Part shown: positions 1 through 44,712 of the stretch, piece by piece | How the letters are laid out: each line of letters begins with the position of its first letter | Numbering within the stretch: position 1 is the stretch's first letter | Assembly: GCA_963716725.1 (NCBI GenBank) | Contig: CAVQUB010000020.1 | Coordinates: 64,001 to 128,000 of the forward strand | Reading direction: 5' to 3' | Source of the DNA: an uncultured delta proteobacterium | GTDB taxonomy: Bacteria; Myxococcota_A; Polyangia; Polyangiales; Polyangiaceae | DNA: 64,000 nt | Position numbers and translations under genes: made by a program | The notes under the pieces: model-generated | Databases searched by the model: none | What the model saw: only the letters and a program-made list of their open reading frames with translations | What the model was told of the DNA's origin: nothing

Positions 1-2879
1 TCGGCTCCGACTCCATCGTGGCTCATCTCGGCGCCCGGCACTCGGTGGGAACCGAGGCCACCACTGCCCTCGAGCTCGGTCGCAAGCTCGCTCACGCAGG
101 CGCGCGCGTCGGGATCGCCAGCGGACGTGCGCGCCTGAACCTGACCACCGACACCGGTGAGCTCCAGCCCGTCGGCGAGGTCGTGGACCGCGCCTCGTCG
201 CTGGCTCGCGACGCCGATCCGTCCATGGTCCTCGCCGACGCCACCACCAGCGAGCTCGGGCGCGGGCGTTTCGAGTTTCGCGCGCGAGACGACGGCTCGA
301 GCAGCATCGTCGGCGAGCAACTGCGCGGACCCCGGGCCGAACGGGCCGGCGGTGCGCCCTTCGTAGGGCGCGAGCCGGAGATGGCTCAGGTGGTCAGCGC
401 CTTCGAACGCTGCCGAGGTGACTCGACGCCAATTCTGGTCACGGTCACCGGGCCTCCGGGCATCGGCAAGAGCCGCCTGCGGCGCGAGGTGCTGGCTCGC
501 ATCACGGCCAGCGCGGATGCACCCGTGGTGGTGTTGCAGCGCAGCGACGCCTACGGCAGCGGACACGCCCTGGGCGCAGCCGCGGACGTGTTGCGCTCCA
601 TCGTTGGCCTGTCGAAGGGCGCGACGGCCAAAGAAGCCGAGACCGCCATCGTGAGCCGGCTGGGCCCGGCGACTCGCAGCGATCTGACCAGCAAGAATCG
701 CGAACTCTTGGCGCGCCTCCTGGCAAACGAGGCGCTGCCCGAAGGGCTCGACCCCCGCGGCGCCCGCGACGTCCTGTGGTTGGCCATGACCGACTTGGTT
801 CTGCAGGTCGCCGCCCAAGAACCCACGGTGCTCGTCATGGAGGACCTGCAATGGGCCGACCAAGAGAGCATTGGTTGGATCGACCACATGCTGGGTCGCG
901 CGGCGCAAAAGCCCCTCTTGGTCTTGGCGCTGGTTCGACCCGCGTTTTGGCACGACCACCCCCTCCGCTTTGCCGGTCGCGACCACGTGCGGCTCGAGCT
1001 GCGACCGATTTCGAAGAGGGCAACCCGCACCATCGCTCGGGCGCTGATGGGCGAGAGCGCCCCCGAGGACGTGCTCGATCGCATCGCCGAGCAGAGCGCC
1101 GGGCTCCCGCTGTTCGCCGAAGAGCTGGCGCGGATCGCGGTCACACGCCAGGAGCCAGTCAACGCTCCCACCATCGAAGCCGCCATCCAGGTGAGTCTGG
1201 ACTCGCTCGACGACGAGTGTCGCGACGCCGTGGGGCGACTCAGCGTCTTCGGCCAGAGCTGCTGGGACACCGGGCTGGAGGCGCTGGGGCTGCCCAACGC
1301 CGAGAGCGTCATGAAGGCGCTGGCCGCCGCCGAGATCCTGATGGAGCAGAACGTCTCGCGCTTTCCCGGCACCCGCGAGTGGGTATTCAAACACGCATTG
1401 GTGCGCGAGGTCGCCTACTCGAGCTTGGGAGATCGCGAACGCGACGAGTTGCACGCGCTCGCGGCGGGGTGGCTCGCGCGCATGGGTGAAGACGCCGCCA
1501 CGGTCGCTGGCCACTACGACCTCGGCAAGGAGCACGTCGCCGCCGCCGCGCATTGGTCCCGGGCAGCGCAGCGCGCTCTTGCCACCAACGCCATCACCGA
1601 CGCGCTTCGCATGGCCGAGCGCGCCCTGGCCTTTGCCGAGGAGAAACCAGACGCTTTCCTACGTGCTTCGTACCTCGACGAAGCTCACAGCCGCCTCGAC
1701 CCGCGGGCCAGCGAGCGAGAAACGGCCGTCGGCGCCATGGAAGACAACGTCTACGACGAGGCCAGCGCGGTGCGTGCAACCGGTGCGCGTGCGCGCTACG
1801 ACGATGCGCGCGGCGTCGGTCACGACATCACCGAGCGCCTGGCCGAAACCCGGGACAAGGCCGCGGCGCTGGGCCTGCATGACGAGGAAGCTCGCTGCTC
1901 AGCGGTGCTGGCGAACCGCCTCGCGTTTGCGGGCCGCTTCGCCGAGGCCGAAGCCGAAGCCACCCGCCTGCTCGAGCTGGCCGAGCGAAAGGCAACTTCC
2001 GCGGCGGCCGTGGACGCCTGGCAGACCTTCGCCATCGTTCGGCAGACCCAGGGAGCCGTGACCGCGGCGCTCGACGCACGTCGCAACGCCGTCAAAGCCG
2101 CGCGCTCCGCCGGGCTGAAAGAGCGGGAAGCCATGCTGATGACCAACTTGGGCTTTGCGCTGACCAGCATCGGGGCTCGCCAAGAGGCGCGGGGCGCCCT
2201 GGAAACGGGGCTTGCCCTGGCGGACGCCATCGGGTCGTCCGGAGCGGTGCGCCACGCGCAGATGAATTTGCTCGGCTGGGCGGCGACCTTCGGCAACGAC
2301 AAAGCACTCGAGGTGCACCTCGCCGAGGTCCGCGCCGAAGCGGACTCGACGGCGAGCGGGGTGTGGGCGGCCCCCGACCGAGCAAATCTAGGCGTGCTCT
2401 TCTACCGAGGCATGGAGCTTTTGCGTGCGAAGAACGAGACCTCATGCAAGCGCGCGGCGGCCCTCCTGCGCATGGCCGCTCAGGGTTATCGGGCCACGGG
2501 CAATCGTGACATCTTGCCCGCCGCATTGGGGCTCTGGGCCGAGGCCGAGCGCCGTTGCGGGAACTCCCAACGCGCCGCCGAGCTCGCTCGAGAGGCCGCG
2601 GAGTTGCTCGAGAGCGGCGCGCCCAGTCTCCTGAACGAGTCCAGCGTATATCTGCCGCTGCACGACGCCTGCGTGGAACTCGAGGACGCAGAACATGCGA
2701 AGCAGGCGGTGATCAGGGGACTGCAACCGCTGCAGCGGCGCCTCGAGGGTCTGCTCGGCACCACCTACGCGCGCTTGTTCTTGACCGAGTTGCCCAACAA
2801 CGCGGCGCTCCTGGCCGCGGCTGAAGGCTATGGCCTGGTGCCGGAGCGTATCCACCGGCTGCTCGAGACGAAGAACTAG
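1..2879 (+). CDS. AAA/STAND-type ATPase with TPR-like helical C-terminus (myxobacterial kinase/cyclase-ATPase type); 5' end lies outside the window
   Basis: Motifs FVGREPE, Walker A GPPGIGKS, Walker B-like LVMEDLQWAD, GLPLFAEEL, FKHALVREVAY. Frame is open to the window edge. The stop TAG (2877-2879) is part of the IS target CTAG. Confidence 0.8.
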   Translation, partial: GSDSIVAHLGARHSVGTEATTALELGRKLAHAGARVGIASGRARLNLTTDTGELQPVGEVVDRASSLARDADPSMVLADATTSELGRGRFEFRARDDGSSSIVGEQLRGPRAERAGGAPFVGREPEMAQVVSAFERCRGDSTPILVTVTGPPGIGKSRLRREVLARITASADAPVVVLQRSDAYGSGHALGAAADVLRSIVGLSKGATAKEAETAIVSRLGPATRSDLTSKNRELLARLLANEALPEGLDPRGARDVLWLAMTDLVLQVAAQEPTVLVMEDLQWADQESIGWIDHMLGRAAQKPLLVLALVRPAFWHDHPLRFAGRDHVRLELRPISKRATRTIARALMGESAPEDVLDRIAEQSAGLPLFAEELARIAVTRQEPVNAPTIEAAIQVSLDSLDDECRDAVGRLSVFGQSCWDTGLEALGLPNAESVMKALAAAEILMEQNVSRFPGTREWVFKHALVREVAYSSLGDRERDELHALAAGWLARMGEDAATVAGHYDLGKEHVAAAAHWSRAAQRALATNAITDALRMAERALAFAEEKPDAFLRASYLDEAHSRLDPRASERETAVGAMEDNVYDEASAVRATGARARYDDARGVGHDITERLAETRDKAAALGLHDEEARCSAVLANRLAFAGRFAEAEAEATRLLELAERKATSAAAVDAWQTFAIVRQTQGAVTAALDARRNAVKAARSAGLKEREAMLMTNLGFALTSIGARQEARGALETGLALADAIGSSGAVRHAQMNLLGWAATFGNDKALEVHLAEVRAEADSTASGVWAAPDRANLGVLFYRGMELLRAKNETSCKRAAALLRMAAQGYRATGNRDILPAALGLWAEAERRCGNSQRAAELAREAAELLESGAPSLLNESSVYLPLHDACVELEDAEHAKQAVIRGLQPLQRRLEGLLGTTYARLFLTELPNNAALLAAAEGYGLVPERIHRLLETKN

Positions 2880-2944
2880 TGCCGCGCGGCAGAAGTTTCG
2901 CTGGTTTCTTTTCCGTGTGCGTGTCGTCGGTGTAGTGGGGTGAC

Positions 2945-4098
2945 ATGATCGACTACAGCGCGTTCGCGGGCCGAGCGCACGGTGGTCGTCCGACGGTTCC
3001 GCTCGCGCTGAGGGCTGAAGAGCGCGCGCGGATCGAGGAGGCGTTGCGACCCGCCAGGGCGGAGCAGCGGCTGGTTCGTCGGGCGCAGGCCGTGTTGATG
3101 ATGGCGGACGGAGTGCCTGCGACGGACATCGCCCGGCTCCTCGGGGTGCACGTGCGCACGGTGGACGACTGGCGCAAGCGCTTCGACTGCGCGGCACCTA
3201 GCGAGAGACTGGCGGACGCCCCGCGCTCGGGACGGCCGCCCTCTCTCTCTCGGACACCGTAGCGGCTCGAGTAGAAGCAGAAGCGTGTCGACCGCCGAGC
3301 GACGTCGGCGTGCCCGTCACGCACTGGTCAGCGTCGTTGCTTGGCGTGCACGTTCGCGCGCAAGGAATTCAGATCAGCGACCGGTCGGTGGGCCGCATAC
3401 TCAAGGATGCTGACCTGCAACCGCATCGGCAACAAATGTACCTGACTTCGCACGACGACGAGTTCAGGGGGAAGCGCGACGACGTGCTGCGCGTCTACTA
3501 CGAGACGCCAAAGAAGGAGCACATCGTGTGCGTCGACGAGAAGACCGGCATCCAGGCGCTCGAACGCCGCTACGCTGACATTCCGATGGTGGCCGGACAG
3601 CCCGTCCGCCGCGAATTCGAGTACGTCCGCCATGGCACGCTCTGCTGGATGGGAGCGCTCGATGTCCGCCGCGGCAAGCCGTTCGGCTTCATCTCGGACG
3701 GGCACGACAGCGACACCTTCGTCGAACTACTCGACGTCATCGAGGCGGTCTACCCGCCGGGTCGTGGCCACATCATCATGGACAATCTCTCCGCCCACGA
3801 CACGCCCGACGTGAACGAGTGGTTTGACGAGCACCCACGCTGGACGCGCCACTTCACGCCGAAGCACGCGTCGTGGCTCAACCGGATCGAGTGCTGGTTC
3901 TCGATCCTCACGCGCCAACTTCTCGCACGAGGCTCGTTCACGTCAACCGACGACCTCGCGGCGAGGATCGACGCGTACGTCGCGTGGTATCTGCAGACCG
4001 ACCGACCCTTTCGCTGGTCGTACCGCCCCAAGTCGTGGGCCGAATCCAGAAAAATCTCCTCACTTTCTGCGAAGAAAGCCGCAACTGTTTCGGAGTGA
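2945..4098 (+). CDS. IS630 transposase, split into HTH ORF (2945-3262) and DDE ORF (3310-4098) at a (CT)5 tract
   Basis: HTH (DIARLLGVHVRTVDDWRKRF, DAPRSGRP) and DDE motifs VCVDEKTGIQ, HIIMDNLSAH, SWLNRIECWF. Removing one CT unit, as in copy 2, fuses the two ORFs. Confidence 0.9.
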
Positions 4099-4115
4099 GG
4101 CCCGACCACACGGGG

Positions 4116-4611
4116 ATGGCACAGGAAGGGCGAAAGCTCGGAAGATTTGGGGATGGGACGGACGAGGTGATCGGTGCGCTGATCGAGGTGCATCGGCATC
4201 TCGGTCCAGGGCTGATGGAATCCGCATATGAGGCCTGTCTATCTGCCGAGCTGTCCGAACGACGGCTCAAGTTCGAGCGGCAGCGACCGCTACCAATCCG
4301 CTACAAAGGCGTACACCTTGACTGCGCCTATCGCCTCGACCTGGTCGCTTCCAGATCGTATCCTCCTGGAGCTCAAGGCGGTCGAGCGGCTGCTCCCGAT
4401 TTACGAAGCGCAGGTCATCACCTATCTGCGCCTTTCGCGGTTGCCCGTCGGCCTGCTCGTCAACTTCAACGTGACCGCGCTCAGAAATGGCCTGCGGAGG
4501 CTAACGCCTGACCACCCCAAATCCTTCCGCTCTTCCGCCCTTCCTGTGAGAGCCCAAATGAGCGCAGGTCTCAGGGGCGAATCCACTCGAACTTCGGCCG
4601 CGCGGCACTAG
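4116..4611 (+). pseudogene. GxxExxY protein, copy 1, +1 frameshift at about 4348-4352 (real or assembly error)
   Basis: LGPGLMESAYEACL and the ELKAV motif are split across ORFs 3873-4511 and 4228-4611. CTTCC here versus TCGA in intact copy 2. Confidence 0.8.
4120..4548. repeat. ~37-bp imperfect inverted repeat pair bracketing the GxxExxY core (arms 4120-4156 and 4512-4548)
   Basis: Left arm CACAGGAAGGGCGAAAGCTCGGAAGATTTGGGGATGG; reverse complement of right arm CACAGGAAGGGCGGAAGAGCGGAAGGATTTGGGGTGG. Confidence 0.9.
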
Positions 4612-5813
4612 CGCGCGAGCGCTTTGCCGATCCGCGTGCAGGCTTCTTCGACCCGCGGCGGATCTTCGATCAGCGCAAAGCGCAGGAATCCCTCGCCGCC
4701 GGGCCCGAAGCCCGTGCCGGGCGACAGCGCAACGTGCGCCTCCTCGATCAGCCACGTGGCGGCGTCCCGCGAGCTCTTTCCCGCGAGCTTTCGCGGGATC
4801 TTCGCCCAGACGAACATGCTGCCACTCGGCTCGGGCACGTCGCCCCAGCCCGAAGCCGCGAGCCCGCGGGTCAGGGTGGTCGCGCGCGTTTGGTAAAGGG
4901 ACCGGATCTCGTCCACCAGCCCGTCGCCGTGGTCGAGGGCCCAAGCCGCCGCGTACTGCAGCGGCATGAAGGTGCCGTAGTCCATGTAGGTCTTGAGGTG
5001 CGAGAGCGCAGCGACCATTCGGGCGTTGCCGGCCATGAAGGCGATGCGCCAGCCCGGCATGTTGTAGCTCTTCGACATCGAGAAGACTTCGACGGCAAAG
5101 CTCTTCACCTGATCGTGATCGACCCCGCAGTCGAAGATGCTCGGGGCGTGGCGCGTGCTAAAATCGAGATCCGCGTACGCCGCGTCGTGCAGCAGCATGG
5201 CGCCCCCGCGCCCGACGACGCGCACGAGATCCGCGAGGGCCTCTCGCGAGATGACGAACCCGGTGGGGTTGTGCGGGTAGTTCGCGATCACGAGCTTGGT
5301 CTTGCCGCCTGCCTTCTCGACCTTCTGCATCGCATCTGCAATGGCCTTGGCCGGCTCCAGCTCGGCGGCCACTGAGTAGCCGACCACGGCGGCACCCGCG
5401 ATGGCGGGCGCCCCCTCGTGAATGGGATAACAGGGGTCCGGAACCACCGCGGAGTCCCCACGGTCGAGGATGGCGAGGCACAGGTGGCTGATGCCCTCCT
5501 TCGCACCCATGGTGACCAAGACCTCGGAGTCGACGTCGAAGCGTGTCTGGTAGCGTCGCTCGTACCAGCGGCCGAAGGCGGCCCGCAGCGCCGGCAGACC
5601 ACGCCCAGGGTGGTAGCGGTGGTTCTTCCCGATGTCGGCGGCAGCGTGCAGCTGATCCACGATGGCCTGGGGCGTCGGCCGATCGGGGTTGCCGAGGCCG
5701 AGATCGATGAGGTCGGCACCCGCGTCGATGGCCTTCTTCTTCACCGCGTCGGTGGCGACGAAGGCATAGGTGGGCAGGGCTTCAGCACGGGGGAAAGGCC
5801 AAGGGTTCGTCAC
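4608..5813 (-). CDS. PLP-dependent class I/II aminotransferase, AlaC/LL-DAP aminotransferase-like
   Basis: IDLGLGNPDRPTP, NYPHNPTG, DAAYADL, SMSKSYNMPGWR (PLP lysine), KTYMDYGTF, GEGFLRFALI. Confidence 0.88.
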   Translation of the reverse strand: MTNPWPFPRAEALPTYAFVATDAVKKKAIDAGADLIDLGLGNPDRPTPQAIVDQLHAAADIGKNHRYHPGRGLPALRAAFGRWYERRYQTRFDVDSEVLVTMGAKEGISHLCLAILDRGDSAVVPDPCYPIHEGAPAIAGAAVVGYSVAAELEPAKAIADAMQKVEKAGGKTKLVIANYPHNPTGFVISREALADLVRVVGRGGAMLLHDAAYADLDFSTRHAPSIFDCGVDHDQVKSFAVEVFSMSKSYNMPGWRIAFMAGNARMVAALSHLKTYMDYGTFMPLQYAAAWALDHGDGLVDEIRSLYQTRATTLTRGLAASGWGDVPEPSGSMFVWAKIPRKLAGKSSRDAATWLIEEAHVALSPGTGFGPGGEGFLRFALIEDPPRVEEACTRIGKALAR

Positions 5814-28484: not shown

Positions 28485-29633
28485 TCAAGCTCCGCGCAGC
28501 GCCGCCGCACGCGCTCGGGCCACCGAAGGCGCGTCGACGTGGGCGCCGGCCGGCAGGAATGCGACGCCGTTCTCGTCGAGCACCGTCGCGATCACGCGAG
28601 GCAAGAACTCGCTGGCATCCACGTGACCGAGGGCGGCGCGAACGACCGCGCTCGCGCCGAGACCCGGCACCACGAGGGACCCCGCCGGCTCTCGCACGAC
28701 GACGTCGCGTTGCAGCTTCCTCGCGCCGGTCACGCAGGGCGACAGCGCGGCAATTCTCAAGACCCAGCTCTGATCGGCGGCGGCAGCCCGAGCGCGGTCG
28801 GACAGCTCCCAGTGCAGGAAGAGGGCGCCGCCCCGTGGGATCGCGACCAATACGTCCGTCCGCGAATGAGGATCGTCCGCGCGGGGCTCGGGCGCACGCG
28901 CCGGGGCTTCGACGGCAACTGCGACCTCGACAGCTTCGACCTCGACGACTTCGACCTCGACGACGGCGCTCGCCACCTCGACGACTTCGACCTCGACGAC
29001 GGCGCTCGCCACCTCGACGACGGCGCTCGCCACCTCGAAGCCGGGGGGAGTCGCGGGCAGCAGCTCTGCTTCGACCGGCGGGGATTCGTCCGGCGGGGAT
29101 TCGTCCCAGACCTCGTCGCCAGGCGCAGGCGCCGCCGGGAGCTCTTCGGACTCGGGGGCCGGGACGTCTTCGGGCGCTTCCGGCTCGACGACCCGAGCCG
29201 GTGCCGGTCGCGGCGTCGCAAGGCGATCGCGGAGCGCTCGCGCAGCGGCGTGGTCGGGCTCGTTCTCGAGCACCTGATCGAGCATGCCGAGGGCACGCTT
29301 CAGATGGCCCTGTGCGGCGTAGATTTCTGCGAGCGTCACCGTGGCCACGGGCGCTTGGTGCAACACCCGAGTGGGCGCGACTCCCTGCCGCACGAGCTCC
29401 GCGGCGTCGGGCATGTTGAGCCCCTGCTCGATCAAGCTGGCGACCAAGTCGCGCGCCACGCCCAGCCACCCGCGGGCTCTACGTCGGGCGTTGACGTCGG
29501 TCTCTTGTCGCCGGATGATCTCGTCGATCATCTCGACCCGCGTCATGACTTCGGGCCGCGGGACACCGAGGCGGCGCGCGCGCTCGATCAGCCCACTTCG
29601 GTTCAATGCCTCGAGCTCGTTACGCGTCGTCAC
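28485..29633 (-). CDS. Rho-N-like/TPR-like/DUF4912-like protein with acidic low-complexity linker
   Basis: N-terminal ELEALNRSGLIERARRLGV..MTRVEMIDEI; TVTLAEIYAAQG; C-terminal LVAIP...LFLHWEL. Confidence 0.6.
   Translation of the reverse strand: MTTRNELEALNRSGLIERARRLGVPRPEVMTRVEMIDEIIRRQETDVNARRRARGWLGVARDLVASLIEQGLNMPDAAELVRQGVAPTRVLHQAPVATVTLAEIYAAQGHLKRALGMLDQVLENEPDHAAARALRDRLATPRPAPARVVEPEAPEDVPAPESEELPAAPAPGDEVWDESPPDESPPVEAELLPATPPGFEVASAVVEVASAVVEVEVVEVASAVVEVEVVEVEAVEVAVAVEAPARAPEPRADDPHSRTDVLVAIPRGGALFLHWELSDRARAAAADQSWVLRIAALSPCVTGARKLQRDVVVREPAGSLVVPGLGASAVVRAALGHVDASEFLPRVIATVLDENGVAFLPAGAHVDAPSVARARAAALRGA
28924..29038. repeat. Coding tandem repeat of 15- and 21-bp units (EVASAVV / EVEVV)
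   Basis: Repeated ACCTCGACGACGGCGCTCGCC and ACCTCGACGACTTCG. Confidence 0.85.
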
Positions 29634-29648
29634 CGGGCCGCGACTGTA

Positions 29649-29869
29649 CTAGTGCTGCGTCCCAGAAGTAACCGTCCATGATCGAGGCGCAGCTTAGGGG
29701 ACGCAGCACTGGCAATCGGTGAAGCCGATTGACTCGGGGTGAATCGGCCGAAGGCTGAGAGGGGCCCGAGGGGCCCCTACGAAGAGATAGTGTTGGCGCT
29801 GCTAAGCAGCGCATGCGGCGGAGCCGCGCCCAGAATTCGCGTAGCGCGAATTCTGGGACAGGACACTAG
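29649..29869. mobile_element. MITE-like non-coding element with IS630-type ends and stacked hairpins
   Basis: Ends CTAGTGCTGCGTCCCAGAAG and AATTCTGGGACAGGACACTAG (imperfect IR, CTAG on both sides); seven internal palindromes; shares its right CTAG with IS copy 2. Confidence 0.72.
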
Positions 29870-29934
29870 TGCCGCGCGGCAGAAGTTTCGCTGGTTTCTT
29901 TTCCGTGTGCGTGTCGTCGGTGTAGTGGGGTGAC

Positions 29935-30420
29935 ATGATCGACTACAGCGCGTTCGCGGGTCGAGCGCACGGTGGTCGTCCGACGGTTCCGCTCGCGCTG
30001 AGGGCTGAAGAGCGCGCGCGGATCGAGGAGGCGTTGCGACCCGCCAGGGCGGAGCAGCGGCTGGTTCGTCGGGCGCAGGCCGTGTTGATGATGGCGGACG
30101 GAGTGCCTGCGACGGACATCGCCCGGCTCCTCGGGGTGCACGTGCGCACGGTGGACGACTGGCGCAAGCGCTTCGACTGCGCGGCACCTAGCGAGAGACT
30201 GGCGGACGCCCCGCGCTCGGGACGGCCGCCCTCTCTCTCGGACACCGTAGCGGCTCGAGTAGAAGCACCGACGACCTCGCGGCGAGGATCGACGCGTACG
30301 TCGCGTGGTATCCTGCAGACCGACCGACCCTTTCGCTGGTCGTACCGCCCCAAGTCGTGGGCCGAATCCAGAAAAATCCCCTCACTTTCTGCGAAGAAAG
30401 CCGCGGCTGTTTCGGAGTGA
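29935..30420 (+). pseudogene. Internally deleted IS630 transposase (HTH kept, DDE lost; 161-aa open frame)
   Basis: N-terminus identical to copy 1, fused to RPFRWSYRPKSW; all three catalytic motifs absent. Confidence 0.88.
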
Positions 30421-30437
30421 GGCCCGACCACACGGGG

Positions 30438-30932
30438 ATGGCACAGGAAGGGCGAAAGCTCGGAAGATTTGGGGATGGGACGGACGAGGTGATCGGTGCG
30501 CTGATCGAGGTGCATCGGCATCTCGGTCCAGGGCTGATGGAATCCGCATATGAGGCCTGTCTATCTGCCGAGCTGTCCGAACGACGGCTCAAGTTCGAGC
30601 GGCAGCGACCGCTACCAATCCGCTACAAAGGCGTACACCTTGACTGCGCCTATCGCCTCGACCTGGTCGTCGAAGATCGTATCCTCCTGGAGCTCAAGGC
30701 GGTCGAGCGGCTGCTCCCGATTTACGAAGCGCAGGTCATCACCTATCTGCGTCTTTCGCGGTTGCCCGTCGGCCTGCTCGTCAACTTCAACGTGACCGCG
30801 CTCAGAAATGGCCTGCGGAGGCTAACGCCTGACCACCCCAAATCCTTCCGCTCTTCCGCCCTTCCTGTGAGAGCCCAAATGAGCGCAGGTCTCAGGGGCG
30901 AATCCACTCGAACTTCGGCCGCGCGGCACTAG
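30438..30932 (+). CDS. GxxExxY protein (PD-(D/E)XK nuclease-like), intact, 164 aa
   Basis: VIGALIEVHRHLGPGLMESAYEACL, YRLDLVVEDRILLELKAVE, AQVITYL, GLLVNFN. Stop is the TAG of the right IS end. Confidence 0.92.
   Translation: MAQEGRKLGRFGDGTDEVIGALIEVHRHLGPGLMESAYEACLSAELSERRLKFERQRPLPIRYKGVHLDCAYRLDLVVEDRILLELKAVERLLPIYEAQVITYLRLSRLPVGLLVNFNVTALRNGLRRLTPDHPKSFRSSALPVRAQMSAGLRGESTRTSAARH
30442..30869. repeat. Inverted repeat pair bracketing GxxExxY, copy 2 (arms 30442-30478 and 30833-30869)
   Basis: Same arm sequences as at 4120-4156 and 4512-4548. Confidence 0.9.
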
Positions 30933-42465: not shown

Positions 42466-44712
42466 TCAGCCCCCGACCGCCGGCTCGGGCTGCTCAGCTG
42501 AGCCCCCGGCAGATGGCTCGACTGGCACGGACTCCGACGCCGGCTGAGAGGGCTCGGGATCGTTCGGCGCAGTGAGCGCGGCGGCCTTGGCGCTGGCGCT
42601 GCCAGCGGGAACGTACACGACCAGCTTGTCCCCAGACTCGAGCTTCTTCTGGCGCGACTGCCGGTTGACGCGTTCCATCCAACCCACGCTCATGCCGTGC
42701 CGGCGACCCAGGCTCGCCAGGGTGTCGCCGCTCTTCGCCTCGACGGTGATGCGCTTCTTGCCTTTCAAGCCCTCGAAGTGATCGAAGAACTCCGGAGTCC
42801 CCGCGACGAGCACCCTCACCTCGCTCTCGGAGAGCACGCGGACACCGGACAGATCCGCGCTGGGTTTCACCCACATCGTCAGCACCATCCCGGACACCAG
42901 CCGCGCGTTTGCATCGACGGCGTTCCAAGCCACCACCTCGCTGTTCGAGACGGCGAAGCCCCGGGCGATTCGCTCGAGGGTGTCGCCGCTCTGAACGCGA
43001 TAAAACACCCGCTTCTTGTCGGAGTAGCGGAACTCGCGGGGAGACGTCACCACGACCTCGCCGAGGGCCGGGGCCGCAGCCCCACTCGCTTCACGCTTGG
43101 GCAAGAGCAGGACGGTGCCCGCTCCGAGCCCTTCGTCGTCGCGGAGCTTGTTGAGCTTGGCCACAGTGGCGCGATCCGTCCCCCGCACTGACGCGATCTT
43201 GGCGGCGTCATCGCCGAGGCGCACCACGTAGGGCTCGAGCTCGGGATCGAGCTCGGAGACGTTGGCGAGCGCTCGAGTGATCTGCTGCGCCTTGCCCGCA
43301 GGCACGCGCACGAAGGCCCGTGGCTGCGTGGTGCCCACCAGCGGCGGCACCCGTCCCAAGAGCAGGTGTGGATTCAACGCCTCGAGGGTGGCGACCGGTG
43401 TCTGGGCCGCCTCGGCGATCTTTTCGAGTGAGAGTCCGCCGCGGGCCACGACGCTGTCCAGGTTCTCCGGAGCATCACCGGCCACATCCGCGAGGCCGAA
43501 GGCCTTCTTGTTCGTCATCACCAGGGCGATGGCGAAGATCTTCGGGACGTAGAGGGTCGTCTCCCACGGGATGCCCGCTTCGTAGCGGCAGAGTTCCCAG
43601 TAGTCGTTGGTGTTGAACTTGCGGATGGACCGGGACAGCCCGCCGTAGCCCATGTTGTAGGCCGCCATCGCCAGCTCCCAGCTGCCGAAGCGGCGGTACA
43701 AGTCGCCCAGATAGAGCACCGCGGCGTCCGTCGCGCGTTTGGGATCGTAGCGCTCGTCGACCCAGCGATCGACGTTGAGCCCGTACATGCGCCCCGCGTC
43801 CGGCATGAACTGCCAGAGTCCCGCCGCGCCCGCCGGTGACACGATGGTCGGGTTGTGGCCGCTCTCGATCAGGCTGAGCCAGACTAGATCCGAGGGCAGC
43901 CCCGCGCGGGTCAACTCCGACTTGAGGAACGCCACGTAGCGTCCGCTCTTGCGGGCCCAGACCCGGGCGATGGCCCTGCCCTTGGGGTTGTCTCGGTAAA
44001 ACTTCAAGTAGCGGACGACCCGCGACTCGAGGCGCACCGGCAGATCCGGCATCGTCAGCGATCGAATCCACTCCGCGTCGCTGGCGTTGTCGTTCGAGTC
44101 GTCGAGCCCGGGATCGCTCGCAATCGCGGGCGGCACACCGGAGGCGTGCACGCGTGCCCCGGCGCTCGGGGCGGGCTTCGGCAGATCCCAGCTGAAGCCC
44201 GAGGTGGAGCCGGGCAACGGCTTGGGGAAGAGCACTCGCTCGGCGTCCTTCAGCGCTTCGAGCTCGGGATCCTTCTTGTCGGTGCCCTGCTTGGAGGTCG
44301 CGGTGACGCGGCGACGCGCCGCTTCGTTCGGCGGCGGCGAGGCCTTTCCCGCCGGGAGGGTCGCCGCCGGACGCCGAGGCGCCTTGCCCTTCTTCGTGGG
44401 AGCTGGCTTTGCCTTCGGCTTCGACTTCGACTTCGCCTTCGCCGGAGCGGGCGCAGGTGCCGCCGGTCCCGTCGCGGGAGCGGGCGCCGGATTCGCTTTC
44501 GGCGCGGGCGTGGGATTCACCTGCGGTGCCGGCGCGGGATTCACCTTCGGCGGCGGCGGGAGGTTCACCTTCGGCGCGGGCGCCGGATTCGCTTTCGGTG
44601 CGGGCGCCGGATTCACTTTCGGCGGTGCTTCGGGGAGCACGTCTTGAGCACGAGCGACCGTCGCGAGCGACAGAATCGCCGCGAGCACGATCGAAGCTCC
44701 CGCGCGCTGCAT
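42466..44712 (-). CDS. MltD-like lytic transglycosylase with LysM domains
   Basis: LIESG, AAGLWQFMP, VDERYDP, AMAAYNMG, ETTLYVPK; LysM repeats YVVRLGD, YRVQSGDTL, KSGDTL. Confidence 0.88.
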   Translation of the reverse strand: MQRAGASIVLAAILSLATVARAQDVLPEAPPKVNPAPAPKANPAPAPKVNLPPPPKVNPAPAPQVNPTPAPKANPAPAPATGPAAPAPAPAKAKSKSKPKAKPAPTKKGKAPRRPAATLPAGKASPPPNEAARRRVTATSKQGTDKKDPELEALKDAERVLFPKPLPGSTSGFSWDLPKPAPSAGARVHASGVPPAIASDPGLDDSNDNASDAEWIRSLTMPDLPVRLESRVVRYLKFYRDNPKGRAIARVWARKSGRYVAFLKSELTRAGLPSDLVWLSLIESGHNPTIVSPAGAAGLWQFMPDAGRMYGLNVDRWVDERYDPKRATDAAVLYLGDLYRRFGSWELAMAAYNMGYGGLSRSIRKFNTNDYWELCRYEAGIPWETTLYVPKIFAIALVMTNKKAFGLADVAGDAPENLDSVVARGGLSLEKIAEAAQTPVATLEALNPHLLLGRVPPLVGTTQPRAFVRVPAGKAQQITRALANVSELDPELEPYVVRLGDDAAKIASVRGTDRATVAKLNKLRDDEGLGAGTVLLLPKREASGAAAPALGEVVVTSPREFRYSDKKRVFYRVQSGDTLERIARGFAVSNSEVVAWNAVDANARLVSGMVLTMWVKPSADLSGVRVLSESEVRVLVAGTPEFFDHFEGLKGKKRITVEAKSGDTLASLGRRHGMSVGWMERVNRQSRQKKLESGDKLVVYVPAGSASAKAAALTAPNDPEPSQPASESVPVEPSAGGSAEQPEPAVGG
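44477..44623. repeat. Coding 24-bp tandem repeat, about 6 units (PK[VA]NPAPA)
   Basis: Repeated GGCGCCGGATTC(GC/AC)TTTCGG-like units in the transglycosylase N-terminal linker. Confidence 0.8.

Follow-up and report, generated by a model that had tools for sequence, protein, structure and literature searches.

A GxxExxY gene cassette with IS10-subgroup-type ends nested in an IS630-family element of an uncultured member of the Polyangiaceae

Mobile insertion cassettes (MICs), of which MIC231 is an example, carry inverted repeats of insertion sequence (IS) type and no transposase gene, are flanked by a target duplication, and were first described as being mobilized in trans by an IS4-family transposase (excerpt of PMC3913671; MIC231 is also cited in an excerpt of PMC2266710). 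For the IS10 subgroup of the IS4 family, Table 1 of PMC2266710 lists lengths of 1200–1350 bp, 5'-CT at the ends, a 9-bp direct repeat, and the YREK signature. Here we describe a 528-bp cassette that carries a gene of the GxxExxY (PDDEXK_3) family and is inserted in the transposase gene of an IS630-family element. The locus lies in a 64,000-nucleotide stretch of DNA from an uncultured delta proteobacterium of the Polyangiaceae (GenBank assembly GCA_963716725.1, contig CAVQUB010000020.1, positions 64,001–128,000, forward strand), which is referred to below as the window and numbered from its first letter.

The cassette resembles MIC231, which belongs to IS231A of the IS4 family and is mobilized in trans, in its IS-type inverted repeats, in a passenger gene that replaces the transposase, and in its target duplication. 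It differs from MIC231 in having IS10-subgroup ends rather than IS231 ends, a length of ~528 bp, and a hairpin-framed GxxExxY cargo; in addition, no cognate transposase was found in cassette-rich genomes, and mobilization in trans is what we infer here. The IS-type inverted repeats, the lack of an internal transposase, and the target duplication together make the cassette fit the definition of a MIC. The nesting of one mobile element in another is ordinary transposon behavior, and insertions of a MIC into an IS are known. A sequence-only reading of the window had proposed a candidate new nested mobile system, which goes too far. The nesting of a transposase-less, IS-ended cassette is already known, whereas the cargo, a module in which phased hairpin arms flank a GxxExxY gene, is apparently undescribed: no description of a hairpin-framed, cassette-like layout of GxxExxY/PDDEXK_3 genes was found in the literature searched, part of it represented by excerpts.

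The locus very probably consists of three nested layers, which are a hairpin-armed GxxExxY gene, a transposase-less MIC shell of IS10 type, and an IS630 host with which both were amplified. The insertion and its boundaries, the type of ends and duplication, and the co-amplification with IS630 are demonstrated, and movement in trans is probable. The innermost layer is the GxxExxY PD-(D/E)XK gene, framed by inverted arms of ~37 bp made of phased purine words. Around it lies the 528-bp shell without a transposase, whose terminal inverted repeats are those of an IS of the IS10 subgroup (IS4 family); a DDE transposase acting in trans would have inserted it, generating a 9-bp target duplication. One such cassette landed 28 bp from the IS630 right end, in the last transposase codons, where the duplication rebuilt the right end and the last ten transposase codons were swapped for 17 new ones. 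Because the right end was rebuilt and only these ten codons were replaced, the composite stayed mobile and has multiplied at TA/CTAG sites to 32 copies or more.

Insertion of the cassette and its amplification with IS630

Copy 1 of the IS630-family element is full length and occupies positions 2879–4608 on the plus strand, with the TA of its target CTAG at 2877–2878 and 4609–4610. The terminal inverted repeats, 2876–2908 and 4579–4611, are 33 nt long and 82% complementary, and both ends carry CTAG. The transposase is encoded in two open reading frames (ORFs) on the plus strand. ORF1 (2945–3262) is the helix-turn-helix (HTH) part, matching PF13384, PF13551, PF13518, and the N-terminal HTH part of NF033545, and ORF2 (3310–4098) is the DDE part. 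ORF2 scores above the cut-off for an IS630-type DDE transposase (NF033545, 173.4 bits, cut-off 100, residues 4–225) and also matches PF13358. The 33-nt terminal inverted repeat, the CTAG ends, and a TAG following the right end in 29 of the 31 copies read at that end likewise place the element in the IS630 family, from whose habit a duplication of TA alone at the target would be expected. Copy 2 (29869–30929, plus strand) belongs to deletion class A, in which the catalytic domain is gone (IS coordinates 403–1068, counted within the IS630 composite); the class A joint is present in contigs of all four public runs.

The 8-mer CGAATCCA is found at 4041–4048 and 4578–4585 in copy 1 and at 30363–30370 and 30899–30906 in copy 2. 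It occurs seven times in the window against 2.06 expected, a count reached in two of 100 shuffles, and because the enrichment is only mild the 8-mer alone is weak evidence. The flanking repeat in fact spans 12 bp, and its two copies, GGGcCGAATCCA and GGGgCGAATCCA, differ at one position. Alignment of the window to free copies of the cassette delimits the insert at 4047–4574 (528 bp) in copy 1 and at 30369–30895 (527 bp) in copy 2, both on the plus strand. In this alignment the left target duplication of copy 1 is the 9-bp sequence GGCCGAATC at 4038–4046, which matches the right copy, GGGCGAATC at 4575–4583, at eight of nine positions, so that the direct repeat previously given as 8 bp is revised to a 9-bp duplication. 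The corresponding duplications of copy 2 lie at 30360–30368 and 30896–30904. The left repeat is retained in 17 copies of the source genome, reading CGAATCCA in ten, CGAACCCA in six, and CGAATCCC in one. The insertion point falls within the 33-nt extended repeat of the IS630 end, which the right duplication rebuilds together with the bases that follow it.

The insert and one repeat together measure 537 bp, or 3 × 179, and excision in silico therefore keeps the reading frame. In the insert-free reading the transposase ends ...SWAESTRTSAARH, with its TAG in the terminal CTAG. Two of the three closest cassette-free relatives have the tail predicted in this way: the transposase of genome G068 (67% amino acid identity) ends ...YRPKSWSEKHAQTSDWRH and that of G135 (62%) ends ...YRPKSWPTKPAPAADGRH, each with the TAG stop in GGCACTAG, and the third, G109, has a different tail. 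The IS630 relatives align to ORF2 residues 245–247, stopping just short of the insertion point. The present transposase stops 17 codons inside the cassette, which supplies positions 4048–4098. The sequence-only reading had located the repeat at the same four sites, restored an in-frame tail in both copies, described the transposase as running into the cassette for a new tail, and called for cassette-free relatives with an ESTRTSAARH-like end; in each of these respects it was right, with G109 as the relative that departs. The element is like other members of the IS630 family in its DDE_3 transposase above the NCBIfam cut-off, its terminal inverted repeats, its TA within CTAG, and a stop codon in the right end, and unlike them in the foreign 528-bp element in its 3' end, which is kept by every deletion derivative.

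The source genome (84% complete) contains 32 copies of the composite, each at a different site, so that the cassette has indeed transposed along with the IS, as had been proposed for at least one event. Five copies are full length, nine belong to class A, four to class B, and six to class C, and eight are singular; the class C copies are ~94% identical to the remaining composites. The cassette is present in all 32, and no cassette-free copy of the window's IS630 was found in this genome, nor any hairpin arm outside the IS630 copies, be it as a free cassette or as a gene-less hairpin. No contig joint skipping 4047–4574 was seen in four public runs, although contigs drop rare variants and absence is not implied. 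Contigs from three other metagenome studies bridge IS630–cassette junctions. Two 151-nt contigs of depth 2 from a metatranscriptome run lie on the element, and since DNA carry-over is possible, transcription is not claimed.

The terminal inverted repeats of the window's cassette have decayed. Compared with the repeat of G006, a genome of the same genus, the left end (4047–4067, plus strand) matches at 11 of 21 positions (13 of 21 against the left repeat of genome G171) and the right end (4554–4574, plus strand) at 17 of 21. The decayed ends, the lack of any copy outside IS630, and the lack of an IS10-type transposase above the cut-off make the cassette a fossil carried by IS630. In the source genome it now spreads solely as an IS630 passenger.

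Free copies and the origin of the cassette ends

At least three other genomes contain the same element without IS630. Over the full span between the outer edges of the terminal repeats, the window's cassette is 79–81% identical to the free elements of G006, G171, and locus L143. In G006 the cassette is found without IS630 sequence, matching IS coordinates 1177–1698 at 79–80% identity, and ~20 loci hold either the cassette or derivatives with internal deletions. The copies in this genome are bounded by perfect 21-bp terminal inverted repeats, with 9-bp direct repeats outside them. The 21-mer occurs 24 times in G006 and not at all in the source genome, and the reversed 21-mer used as a control is not found in G006. 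Many copies with ends of the G006 type are also held by G171 and G172. In G006 and G171, a few ORF-bearing copies are accompanied by many internally deleted ones that keep both ends and both arms.

Fifteen free copies could be followed at both ends (five in G006, eight in G171, and two in G172, each locus counted once). An exact 9-bp duplication flanks 13 of these, one has a duplication matching at eight of nine positions, and one has a 7-bp duplication. Loci L145, L146, and L163 are G006 loci met again and were not counted, and L147 was excluded for its non-cognate ends. One filled copy, on contig C28 of G006, sits within a multicopy HNH-gene repeat, and a paralogue of this repeat on contig C19 has a single AGGGTCGTC, which is the empty site. 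For a copy on contig C34 of G006, no orthologous empty site was obtained, its flanks not being found in other genomes of the genus. One of the two options in the sequence-only reading, a mobile unit with the repeat as its target duplication, is thus upheld by free copies with perfect inverted repeats and 9-bp duplications at unrelated sites, and the empty allele for which it asked exists, as a paralogue, for one free insertion.

The G006 repeat that hosts this copy is ~800 bp long and encodes a 318-amino acid protein with an HNH-like motif. It is found at L140 (G006:C19:36700–37900) and at least 13 paralogous loci; one copy holds a cassette derivative, and the others are empty sites. Locus L143, from a metagenome-assembled genome (MAG) labeled as Phycisphaerales, encodes a GxxExxY protein 87% identical to that of the window, compared with 80% for the copy from the same genus, a similarity that suggests either a possible cross-phylum transfer or a binning error. 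L143 and L144 first seemed to share the inner part only, as if the hairpin module might be an insert with boundaries of its own inside the shell, but the outer ends of L143 are present in decayed form. A contig from a sediment metagenome (run X5) tracks the cassette to the right arm (window position 4548) and continues into another terminal repeat and non-IS630 sequence, which suggests that cassettes with 90% or more similarity to that of the window may occur elsewhere in free form. Locus L188 was considered as an IS630–cassette junction because a BLAST match reached IS coordinate 1144, and it was rejected when tblastn returned no transposase; the extension is a chance match.

With up to three mismatches allowed, the 21-mer was found in 19 of 151 genomes of the order, with many of the matches at contig ends, and the reversed control gave one match in each of two genomes. 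In G145, two inverted matches bound an IS of 1252 bp with the 9-bp duplication GATTGTCGG and an ORF of 386 amino acids. This ORF encodes an IS4-family transposase, with an NF033591 score of 215 bits (cut-off 152) and a PF01609 match, and its translation contains the YREK signature in YGKRFTIEETFRDAK. Length, 5'-CT ends, YREK, and 9-bp direct repeat all agree with the features listed for the IS10 subgroup, from which the window's cassette differs in having no transposase and ends decayed to 11/21 and 17/21. A cassette-type end also abuts the 3' ends of transposase genes in G174 and G121 and a 90-codon transposase remnant in G171. In G067, a 240-bp miniature inverted-repeat transposable element (MITE) has cassette-type ends and a 9-bp duplication with no GxxExxY remnant, which indicates that the shell is independent of its cargo. 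The free copies thus have IS10-subgroup ends, and the window copy has them in decayed form with a duplication matching at eight of nine positions. Most likely, the cassette was moved in trans by an IS10-type transposase.

The cargo and the explanations considered

In copy 1 the GxxExxY ORF (4116–4611, plus strand) is frameshifted near 4346, so that 4116–4511 and 4228–4611 lie in different frames; at this site the alignment shows GCTTCCAG against TCGAAG in copy 2. The ORF of copy 2 (30438–30932, plus strand) is intact, encodes 164 amino acids, and passes the right end of the cassette to the TAG of IS630. Thus the copy that lost the catalytic domain of the IS does keep an intact nuclease gene, as had been noted, and its ORF does run on to the old transposase end; the account of the GxxExxY ORF needs correction for copy 1, where it is frameshifted. 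In the free element the ORF stops at a TGA within the right terminal repeat, and a 1-nt difference in the window's cassette puts this TGA out of frame, letting the ORF continue to the IS630 stop. Only three of the 32 copies in the source genome, all of class A, have intact ORFs, and one of them (on contig C13) still stops early. Most of the 29 broken ORFs share one complex frameshift that removes E85-x-K87, and those of class C have a second, compensating shift with the catalytic strand still destroyed.

The copy 2 protein matches TIGR04256 with 146.2 bits (cut-off 35) and PF13366 (PDDEXK_3) with 141.3 bits (cut-off 22). Residues G32, E35, Y38, D75, E85, and K87, comprising the GxxExxY motif and the D...ExK core, are invariant in 16 of 16 homologues. 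An AF2 model has a pLDDT of 86.8, and the top structural matches obtained with Foldseek and VIA-align are all PD-(D/E)XK nucleases, with Z scores of at most 7.8, a level that supports the fold alone and does not allow a specific functional relative to be named. A sequence search of solved structures gave no match, and the function of GxxExxY proteins is listed as unknown in an excerpt of PMC3424549. Between the intact ORFs of the source genome and G006, dN/dS is 0.21–0.24, and the nuclease is under purifying selection. A scan of copy 2 for sigma-70 promoters gave nothing above shuffled sequences. The sole GxxExxY gene of the source genome outside the IS630 copies (L044, contig C14, 2117–2464) is a divergent paralogue, and a seed search there found no long flanking inverted repeat.

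The gene is framed by two complementary arms of 37 nt on the plus strand, 4119–4155 on the left, with GGAAG-type words ~8 nt apart, and 4512–4548 on the right. The arms pair in both the minimum free energy and the centroid folds (z = −3.94), and they encode N- and C-terminal residues only, outside the conserved domain. In relatives of the same family the arms differ in sequence yet likewise consist of purine words. At ten loci from distant taxa, which include Acidobacteriota, Desulfobacterales, a cyanobacterium, Bacteroidota, and others, flanking inverted repeats score 14–35 in nine, compared with a maximum of 11 among 36 control placements.

A small ORF enclosed by a long stem of the two ends of an insert is also seen in the intervening sequences of 23S rRNA with S23p-type ORFs, from which the present locus differs in its host site, a transposase gene rather than rRNA, and in its ORF family. 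Another likeness is found in the REPIN/RAYT system (PMC3116915), where hairpin-forming inverted-repeat doublets are tied to one dedicated enzyme gene; as there, gene-less hairpin copies outnumber gene-bearing ones in G006 and G171. The GxxExxY protein differs in having a PD-(D/E)XK fold and not that of a Y1 HUH transposase, and the cassette in having IS-type ends and 9-bp duplications. No link to a RAYT was seen: PF01797 has two matches in the source genome, both on contig C5 and distant from every copy, and no match in G006. The Ssn GIY-YIG nucleases with their NTS/SRM repeats (PMC11893778) similarly combine a small nuclease with a cognate repeated sequence in one genome, and they offer a model in which a nuclease would recognize repeats next to its own gene. 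They differ in fold, and the arms in the source genome occur beside the gene only.

Eleven independent deletions or truncations of the composite have right-hand ends at IS coordinates 519, 805, 1069, 1155, 1190, 1194, 1204, 1230, 1231, 1232, and 1236, with the GxxExxY ATG at 1239. A fifth junction close to the ATG, at about IS 1229, is found in a metatranscriptome contig. The hot spot coincides with a short, imperfect palindrome directly upstream of the ATG (4100–4115, plus strand) that has counterparts in G006, L143, and G171. The hot spot may arise from snap-back of the nascent strand at the long hairpin during gap repair, or from cutting by the GxxExxY nuclease.

Several observations weigh against a passive cargo moved by an IS10-type transposase. 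Four of the 11 junctions fall in the 7 nt at IS 1230–1236 (window 4107–4113; binomial P ~3e-7), and none of the 11 enters the cassette (P ~0.03 in a crude model). The source genome, G006 (73% complete), G171, and G172, all of them incomplete or of unknown completeness, yielded no transposase of the NF033591 class above the cut-off, and the ends and duplications of the G006 copies are nonetheless perfect, a state that suggests movement in the recent past. In the window itself, with its degenerate ends and a single mismatch in the duplication, the assignment rests on homology to the free copies.

What the nuclease does within the three-layered arrangement can be proposed only tentatively. It may act in trans on the hairpins that frame its own gene, in selfish maintenance or processing, and be neither a transposase nor a helper of IS630; we regard this as possible and somewhat doubtful. 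A stronger version, that the module is self-recognizing and selfish and rides any vehicle, first the IS10-type shell and then IS630, seems unlikely. The putative nuclease would then cut the palindrome or hairpin base 5' of its own ATG, and the module, instead of being inert cargo, would favor its own retention or copying much as homing or addiction elements do. Such cutting would explain the five junctions within 8 nt and the intact module in every IS630 derivative.

It is improbable that the cassette is moved by the GxxExxY nuclease that it encodes, which would make the cassette autonomous and its ends and duplication independent of a DDE transposase. Room for this is left by the cassette-rich genomes that lack a cognate transposase above the cut-off, and the few ORF-bearing and many internally deleted copies of G006 and G171, the purifying selection on the ORF, and the recurrence of the arms-plus-ORF layout in distant phyla without IS10-type ends would all agree with it. 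However, related genomes contain a genuine IS10-subgroup IS that encodes a DDE transposase and has these ends and the 9-bp duplication, the G067 MITE has the same ends without the gene, and the MAGs are incomplete. We know of no strand-transfer activity for hydrolytic PD-(D/E)XK nucleases, which also counts against a role as mobility enzyme.

Still less credit can be given to the other option of the sequence-only reading, an accessory nuclease captured by IS630 that aids its transposition or persistence in the manner of TnpB. A protein scan of species genomes returned 53 GxxExxY loci, and in none of these is the gene linked to IS630. Cassette-free IS630 relatives with normal tails exist, and 29 of the 32 ORFs are broken, mostly by one shared lesion. 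The whole cassette is kept in all 32 copies, including the 11 independent deletion or truncation forms, the deletion junctions cluster at its 5' edge, and the three intact ORFs all lie in non-autonomous copies, as a helper would predict; yet a founder effect accounts for the presence of the cassette in every copy. That no insertion occurred, the segment being original to the IS630 lineage and the mildly enriched repeat flanking it by chance, is barely conceivable, given that homology to the free elements begins and ends exactly at the repeat, that removal of the segment yields the tail of the relatives, and that the free copies have ends and duplications of their own.

GxxExxY/PDDEXK_3 proteins are widespread, and the present locus provides a concrete setting in which a gene of this family is mobile. 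Within one lineage the module is carried by a conventional IS10-type cassette with 9-bp duplications, and it can be amplified second-hand by an unrelated IS630. The locus also separates the question of what moves the cassette from that of what the nuclease does. The 32 copies, with their three intact genes, their 11 independent deletions, and the sharp clustering of junctions next to the ORF, form a natural experiment in which a cleavage site and an effect on retention can be tested directly.

The IS630 reading frames and neighboring features

ORF2 of the IS630 element lies in the −1 frame relative to ORF1. This two-frame layout is seen in four of the five full-length copies of the source genome, the fifth (on contig C7) having a 1-nt deletion in a CT tract; ORF2 is open in four of the five, and a frame change between ORF1 and ORF2 is needed in all five. 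The CT-dinucleotide tract lies at the overlap of the two ORFs (window 3243–3256) and differs in length between the full-length copies. The tract of copy 2 is shorter by 2 nt, a difference that would join the two frames, and slippage or frameshifting may occur at this site.

The target CTAG of copy 1 (2876–2879 and 4608–4611) is apparently the site at which the stop codons of two converging genes overlapped; these are a STAND-like ORF of 953 amino acids that ends at 2879 and an aminotransferase-like ORF on the minus strand that ends at 4608. With the TA duplicated at this site, both genes keep their stop codons. Copy 2 is adjoined by a CTAG-flanked segment of 215 bp with inverted ends (29652–29868). 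Its last 70 nt, which contain the palindrome CCCAGAATTCGCG, recur beside another IS630 copy on contig C6 and may be a preferred target. The segment had also been considered as a multicopy MITE, which was ruled out because only one partial relative exists. An Rfam scan of positions 2800–4700 with E values up to 1 matched nothing. Elsewhere in the window, tandem coding repeats are found at 44453–44646 (seven copies with a period of 24 nt) and at 28895–29026 (six copies with a period of 15 nt).

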